A stretch of 58,652 nucleotides of DNA from a virus (taxonomy: Duplodnaviria; Caudoviricetes), in IMG/VR virus record IMGVR_UViG_3300032291_002473, positions 1 through 58,652 of that record. The stretch is one strand, 5' to 3'. Of the stretch, positions 4,827-57,908 are shown piece by piece (the first letter of the stretch is position 1; each line of letters opens with the position of its first letter). The notes under the pieces are model-generated. The model saw only the letters and a program-made list of their open reading frames with translations. It was not told where the DNA came from and ran no database searches. A program made the position numbers and the translations under genes.

Positions 4827-7800
4827 ATGGCAAAGAAAAATATACAAGATACTAGTCAAAATAAAACAAACACTTTTATAAAAGGTTTAAATAAAGATTC
4901 AGATCCTACATTTATTACTGATGGTATGTGGACACATGCGCGTAATGCTGTGAATAATACTAAAGAAGGTGGGTTAGGTACTTTATCAAATGAAACATCA
5001 AATATATATTGTGTAGAAGCAGGTGCAACATTACCAGGTAAAAAGTATATTATTGGTACCGTTCACTTATACTCTGATAAATATATTTTATTTACTGTAG
5101 CGTATCCAACTAATGGCGTTGGTTCACCTACAGGACATGAAATTGGATTATTTGAAGAAGACACTTGTAAATACAGACCTATTGTACAAGATGCATGTTT
5201 AAATTTTGACAAAAGATATTTAATAACAGGTGCTTCAAGAGAAAAAGAAGATTGCTCTTGGGCAGTATATTTTGCTGATGGAAATAATCCAGACAGATAT
5301 TTAAATATTGGTGATGATGCACTATGGCCAGCATCAGATTATATATGGATTGGTAATAACACATATAGTAATGGTACAGCAGCTACATTACAATGGCCAG
5401 GTGTGGCATGGAATCAGAACTGTCAAACAATTAATGATTGTATAATATGTACTGACTTAACTACATTAAATTGTGAAGATATAAGACTTGCACGTTTAAT
5501 GCAAACACCTACACTTCAAATTAAATCTGGAGTTGGTGGAGGTGTATTAAGAAATGGATCTTACTTTGCAGTAATTGCATATACAATTAAAGGCCAAAAA
5601 GTTACAGATTACTTTTCACCAAGTAATACACAACCCTTATGGAATGTTGATGACGTTTCAAGTTGTATTGATATATTTATTACAGCTGACTCAGTTCATT
5701 TTGATGAGTTTGAATTAGTAGTAGTACAAATTATTAATCAAGGTGCAGTAGCAAAAAGAATTGGTCTATACTCAACTAAAACATCAGTTGTTCACTTAGA
5801 TCAAATTAAAGATGATTTAATAACTATTCCAATTGAGCAAATACCTTTAAGAGGACCTGTGTATGAAACATCAGATCAGATTACTGAGGTAAATAATTAT
5901 TTATTAAGAATAGCTCCAAGATCTAAATTTGATTTTAATTATCAGCCTTTAGCTAATCAGATACAAGCACAATGGGTATCGGTAGAGTATCCTGCTGATT
6001 ACTATGTACAAGGTGGAAGTAATACAAGTTACTTAAGAGATGAAGTATATGCATTCTTCATTAGATGGATATATAGTACCGGAGATAAGTCTGCTTCATA
6101 TCATATACCAGGTAGAGCACCAATAGATTTTAATGTTCCAGGTGGAGGTACATTACCTGAAATATCACCCTTAAGTGATCAAAATGCAATTAATACAGAT
6201 GATAGAGTGTTTGAAGTATATAACACAGCTACAGCAAATGCTGCATCTGGAACTTTACCAGATGGTGGTATAATTAAAGCTCAAGGTACTATGGGTTATT
6301 GGGAATCTACAGAAAAGTATCCAGATAACAAAGATGAAGTATGGAATACATCATCTCATTGTTGGACAGGTACAACAGATCCTCAATTTGATTTATGCGG
6401 TAAGCCTATTAGACATCACAAGTTTCCGGATAATATAACTAATGGTTCTAATTTAACTAATCACTATGCACAAGGTGGACAATCTATTAGATTAATGGGT
6501 GTTGTATTTAATAATATCATTTTACCTAAAGATAATGATGGACTTGATATTCCTGGTATAGTAGGCTATGAAATACTAAGAGGTTCTAGAGAAGGTAACA
6601 GATCTATAATTGCTAAAGGTATGTTAAACAACTTACGTGGTTATGATATTAAAGGTAATAATACGGCTGGTAGAAAAGGATTATATCCTAACTATCCGTT
6701 TAATACTATTACACCTTACTCAAGTTCAATAGGTGGACATGTTGCAGGTAACAATGATCCTTATATCAGATTAAAAAATGATAGACTTCAAGATATACCA
6801 TCTAATATGGTAACTTTTCATTCTCCTGATACTAACTTTAGAAATCCATTTTTATCTGTTACTGAGTTAAAACTATATGGTTCAGTATCAGGTACATCTG
6901 TACAATACTTTCAAGAACCAGATCAACATCCTAACTTTAAATTACTAGCTGATGCTGTAGTTATTGTTGCAATACTAGCAGGTGTAATTGAAACTGCAAT
7001 TCAAAATGGTGGTAAGTGGTCTATAACAGAATCTACAAATGGTCCAGCAACAGGTGGTGGAGATATTAGTGCAGCTGCAGCACGTACAGCAGGAAGTATT
7101 TTTCAACCATTAAAGTCTGCATATGATGTTGCTATAAATCAATACTTTACATTAGGTGGTTATTTAGTTGATTCTCTTAATCCACTTGGTAATTTTATAT
7201 ATGATGGGTTTAATACACCTTTTCAAGCAGCAGCAGGAACAGCAGCTATTGCAGGAGCAATAGGTATTAATGGAAAAACATATTCAAAAGAAATACCAAA
7301 ATATAAATATGCTGGTCCAATTGGACTTTTAAATTATTTACAGCAATCTATATTTTATTTTGCTGAAGGTGCTAATACTGCAATAAGATTATTCTATACA
7401 TTTATACCGTATAGACAATATGCATTACAAGCTATTGCAGAAGGTTTTTATAATAATTTTAATCCACCTAATTTATCTCAGGTACAAAGATTTAACATTG
7501 AAGATAGTTTTTATTTAAAAAATAATATTCAAAATGTTAAATCATTTAGTGGTATAAACTATGTAATCAATAATCTTAAAAGACAAACTACTGTTACATT
7601 AAGAACTTCTAGTAAAAATAGTACTATAGGTGGGCCTGCTTTTATTACAGGTCCTACAGCTGATAAATCTTTAGTTACTCTTGGTACTGCAGTAAAAGCA
7701 GGTCTCCCTGTTAATACTACAGATAAAAAATCAAATCAGTTTAATGTACCTATTGCAAGTCAATATGGTGGTATAAAAGTAAGATTAAGAAACCAGTATG

Positions 7801-10031
7801 GTCAACTTGATTCTATTAAGCAAGTACCAATTACTCCATCAGAACAAAAGTTAAATTATAATGGTGAAAATATACCTGTTCTTACACGTTCATTTTGGTG
7901 TAATATAAATACACCTATGGGTAATAGACCTGTTCTAGTACCATTAAATGTAATTAATCAGACTCCAGTATTCTTTGGAGGTGATACTTATGTTAATAGA
8001 TACACTGAAAAGAATAACATGTTCTTTTTCTATGATTGGTTATACGGCCAACCAGATGGATATGAGTATAACTATATTTTAAGAAGCATGATTGCTGAAC
8101 CAAGATTCTGGGCAAACAGTCAAACATATGATGTAGCAGATTTAACACCTACTTCTTTAACTGATATAATTACTCCACCTCCTGGATTTGGTTTATTACC
8201 AAGATCATATTATCAACTTGATTGGGAAAAATATAATTACCAGGATGATACTGAAGGTAATTATCCAGGATTATTTGGTGTTAAAGAATCTTACTTTTAT
8301 TTAGCTAATTCATCAGTAAGAGATTTCTTTGTTGAGTCAGATGTATTAGTAGATTTTAGACAACCTGGTACTGCGGTATATGAACAACATTATGATCACA
8401 ATACATATACTGATTTACCAGCAATGTTTAATATGAATCCTGAAACTATCACTAAAGGAAACTATTATGCATATGATTATTCATTAAGTATATCAAAAGT
8501 ATTTACTCAATACTTTTCACAAGGTAATTTACAGTCTAGATATTATAATCCTACTGTATCTCAGTTATGTTATACTTACTATCCTGATAGAGTTATATAT
8601 TCATTACCTCAACAAAATGAATCATCTAAAGATTCATGGTTTATATACTTAGTAAATAATTATAAAGAATTTAAAAACAGAATTACTAGTATAAAAGCAT
8701 ATGCTAAAACAGGTATGTTTATTACATTCCAAAATGCTAGTCCTTTAGTGTATCAAGGTGTTGATACTCTTGAGACAGACTTAGGTACTAAACTTACTAT
8801 AGGTGATGGTGGTTTATTTTCTAATCCTCCACAGAATGTGACAATCTCTGATGTTGAGTATGAATATGGTTCATCACAGAATAAATTTGGAGTAATTGCT
8901 ACTCCTGCAGGAATGTATTATATATCTCAAAATCAAGGAAGAGTATTTGCATTTGAAGGGGGTCTTAAAGAAATATCTCAACAAGGTATGAAATGGTGGT
9001 TTAGTTTATTCTTACCATATAAACTTATTGAAGATTTTCCTAATTATCCACATACAGATAACCCTGTTGCTGGTATTGGAACTCAAGCTGTGTATGATAA
9101 CTACAATGGTGTAATATATTTTTGTAAAAAAGATTACCAATTAAGAAAAGACTTACCTGCAAATACAATAGTAGAATATATTGAATCAAGAGATTATTTT
9201 CTAGTAAATGGTAGAAGTAAAGTTGAATTAGGGGATCCACTTATATTTGAAAATGCATCATGGACAAATAGTTATGACCCAAAAAGTAATTTTTGGATTT
9301 CACACCATGACTGGCATCCAGACTTTGTAATACCAGCAAGACAATTTTTTATGTCAACTAAAGGAGGTAAAGTATGGAAACATAATATATCATGTAGCAG
9401 TTACTGTAACTTCTATGGAATTCAATATCCATTTGAGGTTGAGATACCATTAATAACGGGACAAACAATTACTACTCTTAAATCTATGGAGTATTTACTT
9501 GAATGTTATAAGAATAGCACATTTAACTGTGTTGATCAATTCCATGTTCTTGATTTTAATTTTGATAAAGCTGTAGTATATAACTCAGAACAAGTATCAG
9601 GATACTTGAATCTTAACATATTTCCTAAGAATAATATTACACTAGCAAATACATATCCTAAAATAAACCCAACATCTATTGATATCTTATTTGCTAAAGA
9701 GGAAAACAAATATAGATTTAATCAGTTTTGGGATATAACTAAAAATAGAGGAGAGTTCCCAATAGGTTCTAATTATCCTCCTACTGGACCACTAGTTCCA
9801 GGTACTACAGTTCTTGCTGGTAATTATACTCAAGAAGTAATATGGAATACGCAGTCTAATGGTTATATTAAAACATTAAACTCAACAAATTTAGATTATA
9901 ACAAGACTCAACTTCAAAGAAAAAAATTCAGACACTATTTAAATTTCTTATATTTGAGCAAGGCAGATTCTAAAGATGTAAACATGATAGTTAAAATTAG
10001 TAATAGTAAAAATCAAATATCACTTAGATAA
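4827..10031 (+). CDS. Tail stabilisation / muzzle (nozzle)-like protein
   Basis: 1734 aa, beta-rich. N-terminal NTFIKGLNKD...ARNAV motif is typical of P22 gp10-like/crAss tail stabilisation proteins. It is the last tail gene before the cargo genes. Confidence 0.7.
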   Translation: MAKKNIQDTSQNKTNTFIKGLNKDSDPTFITDGMWTHARNAVNNTKEGGLGTLSNETSNIYCVEAGATLPGKKYIIGTVHLYSDKYILFTVAYPTNGVGSPTGHEIGLFEEDTCKYRPIVQDACLNFDKRYLITGASREKEDCSWAVYFADGNNPDRYLNIGDDALWPASDYIWIGNNTYSNGTAATLQWPGVAWNQNCQTINDCIICTDLTTLNCEDIRLARLMQTPTLQIKSGVGGGVLRNGSYFAVIAYTIKGQKVTDYFSPSNTQPLWNVDDVSSCIDIFITADSVHFDEFELVVVQIINQGAVAKRIGLYSTKTSVVHLDQIKDDLITIPIEQIPLRGPVYETSDQITEVNNYLLRIAPRSKFDFNYQPLANQIQAQWVSVEYPADYYVQGGSNTSYLRDEVYAFFIRWIYSTGDKSASYHIPGRAPIDFNVPGGGTLPEISPLSDQNAINTDDRVFEVYNTATANAASGTLPDGGIIKAQGTMGYWESTEKYPDNKDEVWNTSSHCWTGTTDPQFDLCGKPIRHHKFPDNITNGSNLTNHYAQGGQSIRLMGVVFNNIILPKDNDGLDIPGIVGYEILRGSREGNRSIIAKGMLNNLRGYDIKGNNTAGRKGLYPNYPFNTITPYSSSIGGHVAGNNDPYIRLKNDRLQDIPSNMVTFHSPDTNFRNPFLSVTELKLYGSVSGTSVQYFQEPDQHPNFKLLADAVVIVAILAGVIETAIQNGGKWSITESTNGPATGGGDISAAAARTAGSIFQPLKSAYDVAINQYFTLGGYLVDSLNPLGNFIYDGFNTPFQAAAGTAAIAGAIGINGKTYSKEIPKYKYAGPIGLLNYLQQSIFYFAEGANTAIRLFYTFIPYRQYALQAIAEGFYNNFNPPNLSQVQRFNIEDSFYLKNNIQNVKSFSGINYVINNLKRQTTVTLRTSSKNSTIGGPAFITGPTADKSLVTLGTAVKAGLPVNTTDKKSNQFNVPIASQYGGIKVRLRNQYGQLDSIKQVPITPSEQKLNYNGENIPVLTRSFWCNINTPMGNRPVLVPLNVINQTPVFFGGDTYVNRYTEKNNMFFFYDWLYGQPDGYEYNYILRSMIAEPRFWANSQTYDVADLTPTSLTDIITPPPGFGLLPRSYYQLDWEKYNYQDDTEGNYPGLFGVKESYFYLANSSVRDFFVESDVLVDFRQPGTAVYEQHYDHNTYTDLPAMFNMNPETITKGNYYAYDYSLSISKVFTQYFSQGNLQSRYYNPTVSQLCYTYYPDRVIYSLPQQNESSKDSWFIYLVNNYKEFKNRITSIKAYAKTGMFITFQNASPLVYQGVDTLETDLGTKLTIGDGGLFSNPPQNVTISDVEYEYGSSQNKFGVIATPAGMYYISQNQGRVFAFEGGLKEISQQGMKWWFSLFLPYKLIEDFPNYPHTDNPVAGIGTQAVYDNYNGVIYFCKKDYQLRKDLPANTIVEYIESRDYFLVNGRSKVELGDPLIFENASWTNSYDPKSNFWISHHDWHPDFVIPARQFFMSTKGGKVWKHNISCSSYCNFYGIQYPFEVEIPLITGQTITTLKSMEYLLECYKNSTFNCVDQFHVLDFNFDKAVVYNSEQVSGYLNLNIFPKNNITLANTYPKINPTSIDILFAKEENKYRFNQFWDITKNRGEFPIGSNYPPTGPLVPGTTVLAGNYTQEVIWNTQSNGYIKTLNSTNLDYNKTQLQRKKFRHYLNFLYLSKADSKDVNMIVKISNSKNQISLR

Positions 10032-17327: not shown

Positions 17328-20264
17328 ATGGCAACGTATATTCAAGGAAGTCAAGATTATATACCTCAGTTTCAACCATTTCAACCTGATTTAAACTTTT
17401 ATGCAAACGCATTGCAGACTAAGCAAAATCAGTATGATACAAACTATAAAGCATTAAACAATGTATATGGTCAGTATTTTTATGCAGCTTTAACACACGG
17501 TGATAACCTTAAGAAAAAAGATGAATTAATTAAAGCAATTGATTTTAATCTTAAGCGTGTCTCTGGTTTAGACTTATCTCTTGAACAAAATGTTGATCAG
17601 GCACAACAGGTGTTTAAACCATTCTATGAAGATAAACACCTTATGAAAGATATGGCCTGGACTAAAAATATAAATAGTCAAAAAGCATATGGAGCAGGTT
17701 TAAAAAATAATAGAGATGAAAAGCAAAGATCTCAATACTGGGAAGCTGGTTTAAGAGCACTTGATTATAAAACTGAAGAATTTAAAAATGCTTCTCTTGA
17801 GGAGACAATGTCAATTGGAAATGCAAACTATACTCCTTATGTTAATGTAATGGAGAAAGCTCAAAAGATTGCTAAAGAACAAAACTTTAAACTTGACAGT
17901 TATGCACCTTCTGCTGATGGTAGATGGATGGTAAAAACTACAAATGGTGAAAACATACTTGAACCATTAAATAAATTACTTGAAGCACAATTAGGTTCAG
18001 ATCCTGCTGTAATTGATGTATACAAAACTCAAGCTTATGTAAATAGAAAAGATTATGCTTACTCTAATGCTGCTCAGTTTGGTGGAGACCAGAATGCTGC
18101 TGAAATGAGTTACTTATCTGAAAGCTATAAAATGCTTAAAGCTGAATCAGAAACTAATTATAAAAAATTAAAAAACTCTTCTGATACATATAATAATCAA
18201 ATCAGTAATGTACAAAAAGAAATCACTGATGGTAATGCACAACCAGGAGCAGAAACATATTTAGAAAGACTACAAAAAGCTAAAAATGTAAATGACACTG
18301 TATTATCAAGCACTGAAGCAAATCATAATGAATTAAAAGATAAAGTAAGTACTGCATCAACTACTAGTGGTTTTGAGAATCCATATGGAGACATTGAATC
18401 TTTAAGATACAAAGTTGATAATGCAATGGCTTCAAAGTTAATGCAAAAAGATCTTGGTGAAGCTGCAAATGTATATGCAATGTCACATAGAGAAGTAGAT
18501 ATTGAAGCAAACATTTATGCTGTTAAAGAGCAAGAACATAAATACAGAATGCAAGAAGTTGCTTCTGCTAATGCAAGTAGAGAAAGAACTGCACAAATAA
18601 GAAATGCAGGCGAAGAAAAAAATATGTTTAATGCACAAAGACTTGCTTCTGGTGGATATCATATTGATGATAGAAAAGTATTAGAGAATGGTCAAGCTAA
18701 TCCAGCATATAATACAGTTGTTCCAAATGATGATGGTGTTATGATAAATAACAGAGATCATAGAAGTGGTACATCAACTCCAGAGATTAACATGAAAGTT
18801 AAGGCTGCGGATAATATGAAACGTATAACTACTGAATATGCTGAACCAGTGTTTAAAAATATGACACAAACACTTGAACAATTAAAAACTCAAGGTTTAA
18901 TATCTAATGAAGATATAACATCAATACTTGGATATGATAGATTTAAAAATATTAGTCTTACTAAATTTAAAGATAAATTAAGTAAAAATTCAGCAGGTTT
19001 CTTAAACACTGAAATAGGTGGTAAAAACCTAGATGCTATATATAATAAATTTAATACATGGATAAAAAACCATAATGGTAATGGTGCTGTAGTTGATGCT
19101 TATGAAAAATCTGGATTAGAAAAACTTGGTACTAAATATACTGGCTACAGTAAAAATCTTGCTAACTATGAGAAATGGAAAAAAGAAACAGCAACTGTTG
19201 TTGAACAAGAATTTACAAGATCAGAAGATTATGATGTTAAAAGATATGGTAAATACTTATACGCTGAAGATGGTAGATTAAGAACTCAAAAAGAATTTGA
19301 TGCATTAAGTAAAGTTACTGGAGAAGAAGTCAGAAGAGTGATAAATCCAATAAGTGGTTATTCAAGTACAGAAGCACCTGTACAAAAAAATAAAGAATTA
19401 TATGATAAACTTATTCAAGCAGCAAGTAAGGTATACAATACATCTTCAAAAATGGTAAAAGCTGCTCCAGGAATATTAGGAACTGGAGCAGGACTTACAT
19501 CTAAAGAAAACTTTATATCAGTATATCATAATGCTTTTGACCATCCAGGTAATGCATTTATGAGAGAAACAATTAATGATTTAAACAACCTTGACTTAAC
19601 AGATGATTCTCAAGTAAAAATTTCATATGATGGTACTACTATAACAGCAGGTGCAAAAAATAAACCTGGAAGAGAAGCCGCACAATTAGTAAGAGATTAC
19701 ATTGCAGAATATCAAAATACTAAAGGAGAAACTAAACCTTTTGAATTAGGTGCTGTAAACATTGCAGAAAACAATTCTAAAAAAGGAGCTATGATTATTA
19801 GACCTGATGCAGAGTGGTTAAAGAAACAAGTATATACACTTGATGCAAATGGTAAAAGAAAAGCAGGTAGAATAAGTGAATCTGAATATAATGCAATTAT
19901 AAGAAATGGTATATCAGTTATTGCAGATTCAAAAAGTTTTAATAATGGTTTATATAAATCTTCATATCTTGATCCAGTTCAAGCTGTAGTAGCATATGAT
20001 GGTAAGTATGAATATGTAGATCCATTAGATGAAGAAGGATACAATAAATTTACTATAGTGCCTGATAAACTTGGTACAACAGATTATATTGCTAAAACAC
20101 AATATAAAGTATGGGATCCAGATTCTAAAAAATGGATGTATCAAGGAACCTATGATGCAACAATATCAAAAGAAGAAGGATTAGCAAATACTGCAGAAAC
20201 AGCAACAGACTTTTTTAAAGCATTAAGAACTCATAATAAAACACAGTACAATGTTGACAGATGA
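17328..20264 (+). CDS. Putative virion cargo/ejection protein
   Basis: 978 aa, helical N-terminus (PFQPDLNFY...LQTKQNQYD), no Cys seen. Lies directly before the giant cargo genes. Confidence 0.5.
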   Translation: MATYIQGSQDYIPQFQPFQPDLNFYANALQTKQNQYDTNYKALNNVYGQYFYAALTHGDNLKKKDELIKAIDFNLKRVSGLDLSLEQNVDQAQQVFKPFYEDKHLMKDMAWTKNINSQKAYGAGLKNNRDEKQRSQYWEAGLRALDYKTEEFKNASLEETMSIGNANYTPYVNVMEKAQKIAKEQNFKLDSYAPSADGRWMVKTTNGENILEPLNKLLEAQLGSDPAVIDVYKTQAYVNRKDYAYSNAAQFGGDQNAAEMSYLSESYKMLKAESETNYKKLKNSSDTYNNQISNVQKEITDGNAQPGAETYLERLQKAKNVNDTVLSSTEANHNELKDKVSTASTTSGFENPYGDIESLRYKVDNAMASKLMQKDLGEAANVYAMSHREVDIEANIYAVKEQEHKYRMQEVASANASRERTAQIRNAGEEKNMFNAQRLASGGYHIDDRKVLENGQANPAYNTVVPNDDGVMINNRDHRSGTSTPEINMKVKAADNMKRITTEYAEPVFKNMTQTLEQLKTQGLISNEDITSILGYDRFKNISLTKFKDKLSKNSAGFLNTEIGGKNLDAIYNKFNTWIKNHNGNGAVVDAYEKSGLEKLGTKYTGYSKNLANYEKWKKETATVVEQEFTRSEDYDVKRYGKYLYAEDGRLRTQKEFDALSKVTGEEVRRVINPISGYSSTEAPVQKNKELYDKLIQAASKVYNTSSKMVKAAPGILGTGAGLTSKENFISVYHNAFDHPGNAFMRETINDLNNLDLTDDSQVKISYDGTTITAGAKNKPGREAAQLVRDYIAEYQNTKGETKPFELGAVNIAENNSKKGAMIIRPDAEWLKKQVYTLDANGKRKAGRISESEYNAIIRNGISVIADSKSFNNGLYKSSYLDPVQAVVAYDGKYEYVDPLDEEGYNKFTIVPDKLGTTDYIAKTQYKVWDPDSKKWMYQGTYDATISKEEGLANTAETATDFFKALRTHNKTQYNVDR

Positions 20265-55765: not shown

Positions 55766-55981
55766 TTATTTGGTTCCTATTCTCTTTTCTTGTTGCGGAG
55801 GAGTATTCATTTCTGCAATGCTCATCTTCTCAAATTCAGCTTTAAAAAAGCTTAATCTAGTATCACCATTTCTACATTTTAAGAAATGCAACACCATCAC
55901 TCTATCATTCTCAATTATAAATCTATCAGGGCCATAGAATCTGATCTTTTGTTTTGCTGGTCTATTAATACCTATTACTGT
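55766..55981 (-). CDS. dnaB: DnaB-like replicative helicase, exon 2 (71 aa)
   Basis: TVIGINRP...LHFLKCRNG completes DnaB motifs H3/H4 (K-x-R-x-G) when joined to exon 1. Confidence 0.88.
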   Translation of the reverse strand, partial: TVIGINRPAKQKIRFYGPDRFIIENDRVMVLHFLKCRNGDTRLSFFKAEFEKMSIAEMNTPPQQEKRIGTK

Positions 55982-56253
55982 CAATTTTGTTATCACAAGA
56001 ACTCTTTATTTCCTGTTTCACTAGTTTCATTTAGTTATTGCTAGTGTTCAGACTATCTCATCATATAAGTAGACAACCTTTGGTAGGTTCTTATATGTTC
56101 CGCACTCGTGGTACTTCATCTTCTCCAACACCATTTGGTAAGAAGGTATGTACTAGTCGTTGATCCTTCAATGTATTTCTACAAAGCTTGGATTAGGGTT
56201 GTCCTCTTCAGGGTTTTCCCAGATTCACGGAATTTAAAGCGGACTCAGTAAGT

Positions 56254-57051
56254 TTATTTAAAATGTATTTTATACAACATTGATTCACACATGTGAGGTA
56301 ACACTAAATCATTAAAAGTAACTACACTATCTGCTTTTATGTAGATTATAAAATTACTACCTGCTTTAGTTATGGTAGTATTAATATTAAACTGTAAAAG
56401 TCTTTGACAAAGTGTAATAATTTCCTCTATAGAAAAACAATTTGTTGCTAAGTTGTAGCCAGATTTTGCTTTAGAACCATCATCCATAAACCATATTGCA
56501 AGAATAAGTGGTGTTAATTCAAAAGTATCAAAAGGAATTTCTTTCTTGCTTTTGTACCAACTATCTCTATATTTATTAAATACTATATTTTGTATAGTTT
56601 CAATATTATACTGAATATAATTAGGCTTTTTAAATCTTATGTCAAATCTAGAGGCTTTTCTAAAATAACATTTAATATGTTCTTTTATTAAGTTGTACTT
56701 ATACTCAACATACTTTTTTTGTTTTTTACCGTGTTTAATTACTAAAGATGAATTCTTATTTCTTGCTTTTGATTTTCCAACTTCTCTTTTATAAGGTGAT
56801 ATATAACCATCTCCTAATAAGGAACCTACAATAATTTCATGTAATTTTCCACTAATTGCAGATACATCTTTACTTTTAGGAGCATACTTTCTTTCAAGAA
56901 GCATACTTACTTGTTTTTTAAGACCTGCATGCCTTATAGCTCTATTTATTGTTGCTGTGGAGCAATCATACTTAGCAGCAAGTTGTTTAATGTTAAGCAT
57001 TTGAAAAAATTCATCTTTTTTTAACTCATGTGATATCTCTATTGTTGTCAT
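56254..57051 (-). CDS. Intron-encoded LAGLIDADG homing endonuclease with N-terminal HTH
   Basis: Two LAGLIDADG-type helices (IIVGSLLGDG, LAIWFMDDG) and an N-terminal IKQLAAKYDCSTATINR HTH-like segment. Confidence 0.9.
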   Translation of the reverse strand: MTTIEISHELKKDEFFQMLNIKQLAAKYDCSTATINRAIRHAGLKKQVSMLLERKYAPKSKDVSAISGKLHEIIVGSLLGDGYISPYKREVGKSKARNKNSSLVIKHGKKQKKYVEYKYNLIKEHIKCYFRKASRFDIRFKKPNYIQYNIETIQNIVFNKYRDSWYKSKKEIPFDTFELTPLILAIWFMDDGSKAKSGYNLATNCFSIEEIITLCQRLLQFNINTTITKAGSNFIIYIKADSVVTFNDLVLPHMCESMLYKIHFK

Positions 57052-57065
57052 ATTATTAGTTTTTA

Positions 57066-57073
57066 CAAATATA
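57066..57073 (-). promoter_or_regulatory. Bacteroidota-type -7 element upstream of the intron HEG
   Basis: TATATTTG on the minus strand, 14 nt before the HEG ATG, inside the intron. Confidence 0.5.
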
Positions 57074-57119
57074 GTAATTTTTACTAATTGACACTTTATT
57101 ACAAACTTTTTTCTTTTTA

Positions 57120-57908
57120 ATCCGCATGTTGTAATAATGCATCAGCACCAAATATGTCTGACTCTAATACATAATTACCATACTTACCATCTTCTGATCT
57201 TTCAGGGTTATCAATATTTCTATTTAACTGACTTAATATTATAAATGCAATAGGGTATATTCTTTTCAATGAAGTCAATGCCTCACCAAAATTGTTTAAT
57301 GTTTCATTCTTATCCTTTTCAGTCTGAGCTTTTTTAACAAGTAAAGAGTGATCCACAGATATCAATGTTTTCTTATAGTGTCTTACACCATTTTCATCAA
57401 CAGTAGAATAATAAGCCATGTATTCATGAATAGTTCTGATAAATTCATCTACAGTACATGGTTTTTCTACAACATCAATTGGATACTTTACTTTTTGTTT
57501 AGCATAGTCATAACACTTTTGTAAATCTTCAGGACTCAATTGTCCATCAGCACTACATAAATACTTATATGACTTACCAATTATACTTGAGTACTCTCTA
57601 ATTGCAGAAGATCTAGCTAACATTTCAAACTGAAACTGTAATACTCTAAAGTCTTCAGCTGGATTTAAAAGAAATGACTCTCTTACTATTTGTTCTACTA
57701 TAAGTGTCTTACCACTTGCAGGTCGGCCCGAAATTATAGTTACAGTATTCCATTCAATACCATCAGTCATTGCATCATTAAATTTAGGCCATGGAGTTCT
57801 AAGACTTTTAATCTCACCTGCCATTCTACCTTTTAAATAATGCAAGGATTCTTGAAAACCTTCTTTCTGACTATTCCACTTTAATGGTGTTTCTGCTTTT
57901 CTCAACAT
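57120..57908 (-). CDS. dnaB: DnaB-like replicative helicase, exon 1 (263 aa)
   Basis: Walker A GRPASGKT, FQFEM, SVDH Walker B, LSQLNR and SDIFGADALLQHAD. Spliced product is 334 aa. Confidence 0.9.

Follow-up and report, generated by a model that had tools for sequence, protein, structure and literature searches.

A predicted mobile group I intron with a LAGLIDADG endonuclease gene in its P1 loop in the DnaB-like helicase gene of a putative freshwater crAss-like phage

RESULTS

The window analyzed here, that is, the whole stretch of DNA, comprises all 58,652 bp of a virus contig in IMG/VR; it is the entire record and is rated about 50% complete. The sequencing runs that contain parts of the contig are freshwater or lake metagenomes. 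Three successive very large ORFs (1,980, 3,680, and 1,099 aa) occupy positions 20251 to 40546 of the plus strand and can be compared with the transcription block of crAss-like phages. The nearest named relatives of the helicase described below are 30 to 35% identical to it and all come from crAss-like genomes named "uncultured phage cr..". Because of the giant ORFs and these nearest helicases, the data point to a distant crAss-like phage of freshwater as the host of the intron.

The helicase gene lies on the minus strand, as do all features of the intron, and it is present in two pieces. Exon 1 (57120 to 57908), identified from the ORF list and by Pfam DnaB_C, has 263 codons and ends in LLQHAD, its last codons CAT GCG GAT running up to 57120. 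Exon 2 (55766 to 55981) has 71 codons plus a stop codon (55768 to 55766); it begins at 55981 with ACA GTA ATA and encodes TVIGINRP. The 1,138 nt in between (55982 to 57119), present as a single copy in the 58,652-bp contig, start with an in-frame UAA stop codon (57119 to 57117) and end with a G (55982), and they have exactly the letters and coordinates of the group I intron described in the original prediction. Exon 1 scores 56.5 bits with the Pfam DnaB_C profile (PF03796; cut-off, 27). A search with exon 1 returned 2,104 relatives, the best full-length ones being 334 to 336 aa long, and one of them (P0002) is 90% identical over exon 1. Removal of 57119 to 55982 yields LLQHAD-TVIGINRP, and uninterrupted homologues of 335 aa read LLQHADTVIGINRP at the junction. 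Both helicase pieces are colinear with six uninterrupted homologues (334 to 336 aa), with the D as the end of one piece, the T as the start of the other, and neither gap nor overlap between them. The predicted GAU/ACA junction therefore agrees with these six proteins and also with the intronless DNA contigs described below.

When aligned with known helicases, the insertion point falls at QDAD/IVLF of Helicobacter pylori DnaB and at QLSD/TIIAL of T7 gp4, and the DnaB-like motifs continue over the junction. This position is the end of helicase motif H4, and the LSQLNR sequence about 40 residues upstream is H3. The insertion had been assigned to motif H3, and this alignment moves it to the end of H4. 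An intein can be discarded as the inserted element, as the first intron codon is a TAA stop and no Hint family is found among the Pfam matches. Two relatives leave the helicase frame near the same place. In P0087 (70% identical) this happens right after LQHAD, at the same codon, and 24 unrelated residues follow; a search for its locus returned only uninterrupted or more distant helicases. P0108 departs seven codons earlier, after ...DIFGA, presumably where the classical DnaB intein is inserted. Taking the Ssp DnaB extein junction to be RESG/SIEQD, that intein site would lie about seven residues upstream of the intron site.

The ribozyme core (55982 to 56238) was delimited with an Rfam match, RNAalifold, and pair counts on 11 cores. 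In a search of 1.7 kb, the Rfam group I model RF00028 matched 56286 to 56031 over its full length (1 to 253) with 43.8 bits and an E value of 2e-9. The gathering score, 50 bits, is not reached by this match. Searches of the whole contig at an E value of at most 0.01, and of 42 kb, lost the core match. Related cores score higher with the same model, with 102.3 and 85.2 bits for two of the three introns in L127 and 59.3 bits for L128, all above 50; L025 reaches 40.8 bits. The 271 nt that extend from the guide to the terminal G contain no ORF, and this length agrees with the compact core of about 270 nt that had been proposed.

The core belongs to a family. By blastn, a 135-nt part of it matches, at 83.8% identity, DNA without annotation in the Bacteroides phages PhiCrAssBcn14, 15, 16, and 18, which are cultured Kehishuvirus phages (PhiCrAssBcn14, OQ221549.1, is our locus L001). 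Pattern scans and a profile search gave 17 matches in the collected loci, representing 11 distinct cores. A 16-nt core pattern occurs in 118 IMG/VR stretches and, beyond the known loci, only L025 matches the full core profile; the remaining stretches were dismissed as chance matches, with L086 as a partial profile match of 21 bits. PhiCrAssBcn14 is annotated with two "replicative DNA helicase" coding sequences and a hypothetical protein, so gene callers do split such a helicase, as had been anticipated. A free-standing GIY-YIG nuclease gene (L001, 472 to 1110) is located just upstream of this split helicase. The helicases of our contig and PhiCrAssBcn14 show no BLASTP similarity (E value of 0.7 for exon 1 and no match for exon 2), and in each of them the break comes after an Asp that is followed by a V-I-G strand. 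It is plausible, judging from this placement, that the two insertion sites are strictly homologous. The presence of the same ribozyme family in dissimilar helicases, and in gut and lake phages, indicates that the family has probably spread horizontally. L127, which is from the same contig as L006, has three introns of this family (about 889 to 1793, 6684 to 6981, and about 7231 to 8297). The first interrupts a Sak4-like ATPase gene and has a frameshifted LAGLIDADG gene in L1; the second (L127b, 298 nt and without an ORF) and the third, which has a GIY-YIG+NUMOD1 gene 5' of the core, interrupt an AAA ATPase gene. GIY-YIG (+NUMOD1) genes are found at the same 5' position in L003, L128, L123, and the third intron of L127, and L025 and L127b have no endonuclease gene.

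The predicted structure consists of P3 (56232-56226/56104-56098), P4 (56220-56218/56198-56196), P5 (56213-56210/56205-56202), P6 (56192-56190/56166-56164), P6a (56186-56180/56175-56169) with a GAAA loop, P7 (56158-56154/56055-56051), which forms a pseudoknot with P3, P8 (56097-56062), P9 (56046-56019), and P9.1 (56016-55995). P2 is absent, and only UUUAAA separates the guide from P3. An extra hairpin, P7.1 (56153-56111; 43 nt), is made up of three stacked segments. The IA subgroup is defined by extra helices between P7 and the 3' strand of P3 (P7.1/P7.2 or P7.1/P7.1a), and because of the extra hairpin at this position we class the intron, on its predicted fold, as IA type. RNAalifold of six cores gave 65 pairs, of which 32 have compensatory changes. 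When a hand-written structure (12 helices, with P7 as a pseudoknot) was counted on the 11 distinct cores, pairing was present in 98.4% of 690 cells, and 40 of 63 pairs had changes on both sides. None of 500 shuffles reached the observed pairing, and sliding the partners by 1 to 3 columns reduced it to 31 to 45%, with 6 to 9 such pairs. P7 (GACUA/UAGUC) is 100% paired and invariant across the 11 cores, so its support is conservation only, and P7.1 has 13 pairs, 4 of them compensatory. A single-sequence fold of the core was not better than that of shuffled sequences (z score of -1.23). Together, the RF00028 match, the covarying core on 11 sequences, the P1 and P10 pairings described below, and the terminal G uphold the identification of the element as a group I intron.

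The internal guide sequence CUUACUGAGUCCGC (56239 to 56252) begins 2 nt after the stop codon of the endonuclease gene. Its GUCCGC (56244 to 56239) can pair with the exon end GCGGAU (57125 to 57120) through five Watson-Crick pairs and a U.G pair at the splice site, forming P1, and UUACUG (56251 to 56246) can form a P10 of 6 bp with CAGUAA of exon 2 (55980 to 55975). Intron position +876 is the G opposite the splice-site U. When each G of the intron was tried as this partner, three candidates had at least five P1 pairs (+14, +876, and +1067), and only +876 is mostly Watson-Crick (6 bp, one G.U) with an adjacent P10 of 6 bp; +1067 has 5 bp and is inside the core. The guide changes together with the exon in related introns. 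The exon end and guide are GCGGAU and GUCCGC in our intron, CGUGAU and GUCACG in L001, AGAGAU and GUCUCU in L002 (identical to L004 and L125), GAUGAU and GUUAUC in L006 (the first intron of L127), and GGGGAU and GUCCCC in the ORF-less L127b of 298 nt. Such an exon-covarying P1 is found at the same structural place, 250 to 262 nt from the intron 3' end, in five of eight intron contexts. Four of these five have an endonuclease gene between the splice site and the guide, and L127b has a short L1 of about 46 nt. Because the distal guide covaries with the exon at the same place, the endonuclease gene is assigned to L1 in the predicted structure, which sustains the proposal that the guide directly follows the endonuclease stop and that the whole ORF is looped out.

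In L003, L025, and L123, which are in an AAA-ATPase gene, neither a scan nor manual trials gave a canonical P1 at the corresponding position, and by eye L128 looks similar. These AAA-ATPase introns (L003/L124/L126, L128, L122/L123, and L025) have GUA... strings at the guide place that pair poorly with the exon ends ...GAGAU and ...GUGAU, and their cores covary normally. As three of the eight contexts are without a canonical P1, the distal-P1 rule is not established for the family as a whole. In vivo, the formation of a P1 across a distance of about 870 nt may require assistance.

The endonuclease gene (56254 to 57051) encodes a 265-aa, I-SceI-like protein with a double LAGLIDADG motif. It matches Pfam LAGLIDADG_2 (PF03161) over profile positions 2 to 168 of 168 with 120.9 bits (cut-off, 25; E value of 7e-35), and residues 75 to 262 align with I-SceI (PDB 1r7m; E value of 1.5e-9), LLGDGY and FMDDGS being aligned with the I-SceI motifs. 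These matches are in line with the predicted LAGLIDADG class. The ORF also matches PHROG 11023. The endonucleases of our contig and L001 are homologous (28% identity; E value of 5e-19). An N-terminal extension of about 60 aa (56870 to 57051) has weak helix-turn-helix Pfam matches, and the L001 enzyme has an N-terminal helix-turn-helix extension as well (L001, 2121 to 2420; HTH_7, 5.6e-6). Such N-terminal modules are unusual for LAGLIDADG enzymes and could contribute to DNA binding or autoregulation. At a distance of 14 to 30 nt before the endonuclease start codon, six introns have the motif CTAT(A/C)TTT(G/A), independent of the endonuclease family: our contig (57069 to 57076; TATATTTG on the minus strand), L001, L002, L003, L123, and L128. 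This motif resembles the Bacteroidota -7 promoter box, TAnnTTTG. We did not retain TAnnTTTG as a general promoter motif of the contig, as 2 of its 83 sites are upstream of genes, with 1.3 expected. No hairpin sequestering the endonuclease start codon was found (z score of 0.01 for the leader fold).

The intron is sporadic in its distribution, as expected for a mobile intron, because near relatives are intronless. All 80 of the 80 nearest IMG/VR helicase loci are uninterrupted, and an RNA-library contig that is about 99% identical to our contig (3 differences in 265 nt) is intronless too. In the lake DNA run X2, one contig covers 55300 to 55975 and 57120 to 58000, with six letters in between that are a synonymous version of 55976 to 55981, and a second joins 57120 to 55978 with exactly the three missing exon letters in between. 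The X2 alleles read ...GCGGAT followed by ACTGTGATAGG-like sequence. Intronless alleles, which lack precisely 55982 to 57119, therefore exist as DNA. Contigs joining 57120 to exon 2 are also present in the freshwater metatranscriptome runs X17 and X20, with ACC GTG or ACT in place of ACA. In view of the codon differences and the same kind of joined form in X2 DNA, they are best read as intronless relatives and speak neither for nor against splicing, and no weight is given to the missing coverage of the intron in these runs. Other X2 contigs match only short pieces of the core (56099 to 56205) and then continue into unrelated sequence, which suggests that further introns of the same ribozyme family may be present in other genes or phages of that lake habitat.

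DISCUSSION

Our results make it very probable that the DnaB-like helicase gene of a freshwater crAss-like phage carries a mobile IA group I intron with an endonuclease gene in L1 and a P1 that spans about 870 nt. Starting from the observed boundaries, colinearity, presence and absence of the element, covarying core and P1, and intact ORF, we infer splicing, an endonuclease activity with its target, and a conflict between translation and splicing. In the pre-mRNA, the last six exon bases, GCGGAU, would reach across about 870 nt to pair with GUCCGC, which lies immediately 5' of the core, so that the whole endonuclease gene would be looped out in L1. The intron would then be removed by a guanosine-initiated two-step transesterification, with UUACUG beside the guide holding exon 2 through P10, and the spliced mRNA would encode a helicase of 334 aa. 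The most likely role of the endonuclease is to cleave helicase alleles without the intron in co-infecting relatives, upon which the intron would be copied in by homing. Ribosomes arriving from exon 1 are expected to end translation at the UAA with which the intron opens. Group I introns of bacteria and phages generally have such an in-frame stop at their start (PMC2504315). The endonuclease stop is 2 nt before the guide in our contig, in L001 the guide is formed by the last two codons of the ORF, and in L002, L004, L005, and L125 the ORF even runs through P3, P4, and P5. Because of this arrangement, translation of the endonuclease and folding of P1 and the core should be mutually exclusive on the same RNA molecule.

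Other readings of the locus were considered. P1 could be formed locally by GUUUGUA at intron positions +14 to +20, which is 13 nt from the splice site and can form seven consecutive pairs with the exon end ...UGCGGAU; the endonuclease gene would then be located between P1 and P3, in a P2-like place, and not in L1. However, four of these seven pairs are G.U and the adjacent P10 would be only 1 bp. The string has no conserved equivalent in L001, L002, and L006, where proximal candidates have 5 to 6 bp with three G.U pairs and occur at other positions, whereas the distal guide covaries with the exon in five contexts and comes with a P10 of 6 bp. A local P1 is therefore very unlikely. It is almost as improbable that the intron has decayed and no longer splices, the helicase being a pseudogene or made as two separate polypeptides. 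Splicing is a prediction, the RF00028 score is below the gathering score, and relatives do have broken endonuclease ORFs (a frameshifted LAGLIDADG gene in L006 and a GIY-YIG gene with an in-frame stop in L003). In our contig, however, all helices are intact, its sequence being one of those that contribute to the 98.4% of paired cells, and the intron has P1, P10, the splice-site U, and the terminal G. Judged by its Pfam profile, the endonuclease ORF is full length. Translation of exon 2 could not start at the junction itself, where there is no start codon, and the closest in-frame GTG is inside the intron. A genome survey (PMC7886860) counts the helicase among the conserved replication genes of crAss-like phages. 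We consequently keep to a functional intron with a distal P1.

The original prediction went further and proposed that endonuclease translation may be coupled to splicing, so that it would time or gate helicase production. The stop codon at 2 nt from the guide, the guide within the last two codons of the L001 ORF, and the ORFs extending through P3 to P5 in L002, L004, L005, and L125, where ribosomes would block folding, are in favor of such a link. On the other hand, this geometry favors antagonism over positive coupling, the start codon is not sequestered in a leader structure, and CTAT(A/C)TTT(G/A) could mark a separate promoter, even if TAnnTTTG is not enriched upstream of genes. We consider gating unlikely. 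Simple antagonism between endonuclease translation and ribozyme folding remains our preferred reading.

A broader reading is that the introns make up an undescribed, Crassvirales-wide IA family that hops among unrelated replication genes of gut and freshwater phages. The host genes would be those for the DnaB-like helicase, the Sak4-like ATPase, and the AAA ATPase, and L1 would act as a docking bay for interchangeable endonuclease cassettes, namely, I-SceI-like LAGLIDADG with a helix-turn-helix module, GIY-YIG with NUMOD1, or none in two members. Because the guide abuts or lies inside the last codons of the cassette, translation and splicing would be obligatorily exclusive. If true, each intron would have a built-in switch between its own spreading by homing and expression of the host gene. 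As a whole, this reading is possible but we regard it as rather doubtful.

For annotation, our results imply that the helicases of this phage and of PhiCrAssBcn14 to 16 and 18 are probably whole and not broken, despite the fragments that are called. The placement in L1, with the guide touching the endonuclease stop, may offer a simple system for studying competition between translation and ribozyme folding. The conclusion that this is a real, precisely bounded, and probably mobile group I intron is well supported by the sequence comparisons, and it is a fairly ordinary member of an already known class of elements.

The T4 introns in td, nrdB, and nrdD are comparable. They are IA-type introns in genes of DNA metabolism; each carries an endonuclease gene in one of its peripheral loops and has an in-frame stop early on, and translation of their endonucleases conflicts with splicing. 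The T4 enzymes are of the GIY-YIG or HNH type and their ORFs are located in P6a or P9.1/P9.2, whereas here the ORF is in L1, it encodes a LAGLIDADG protein, and P2 is absent. An endonuclease gene within P1 has precedents: in the nuclear rDNA intron of Physarum, I-PpoI is encoded in the P1 loop. As described in the text on the mitochondrial IA1 intron cox3-i2 of Hypomyces aurantius, a LAGLIDADG coding sequence is looped out of P1 there as well (PMC4964425); the settings of these two introns, nuclear and organellar, are without coupled transcription and translation, and cox3-i2 encodes a LAGLIDADG_1 enzyme, in contrast to the I-SceI-like LAGLIDADG_2 protein found here. The recA group I intron of B. 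cereus AH1134 has a putative endonuclease gene within P1 (Tourasse and Kolsto 2008, PMC2504315). Like our intron, it is in a replication or repair gene and has a stop at or near the intron start; unlike ours, it has a different host gene, its endonuclease family is stated to be unknown, and it does not come from a Bacteroidota phage.

Crass-like phages are known to have group I introns that encode endonucleases (PMC7886860; review, PMC10136315). [quoted passage not shown] 2021, PMC7886860). These introns are from the same phage order and are the same kind of element as ours, but the DnaB helicase is not named in that text and ribozyme structures are not given; here, the family is found in a freshwater relative and in the cultured Kehishuvirus phages PhiCrAssBcn14 to 16 and 18. 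No description of an intron in DnaB or a helicase was found in the main texts of the Crassvirales literature, and the supplements may list more sites. To crAss-like phages, where, going by the survey's main text, endonuclease domains alone flagged the introns, our analysis adds a precisely mapped, predicted intron with a structure backed by covariation. Finally, motif H4 of DnaB also contains two intein insertion sites, a and c (Novikova et al. 2016, PMC4760082). The inteins represent another homing element on the same short helicase motif, with protein splicing there and predicted RNA splicing here. As motif H4 is also an intein hot spot, two kinds of homing elements seem to have converged on one short motif.
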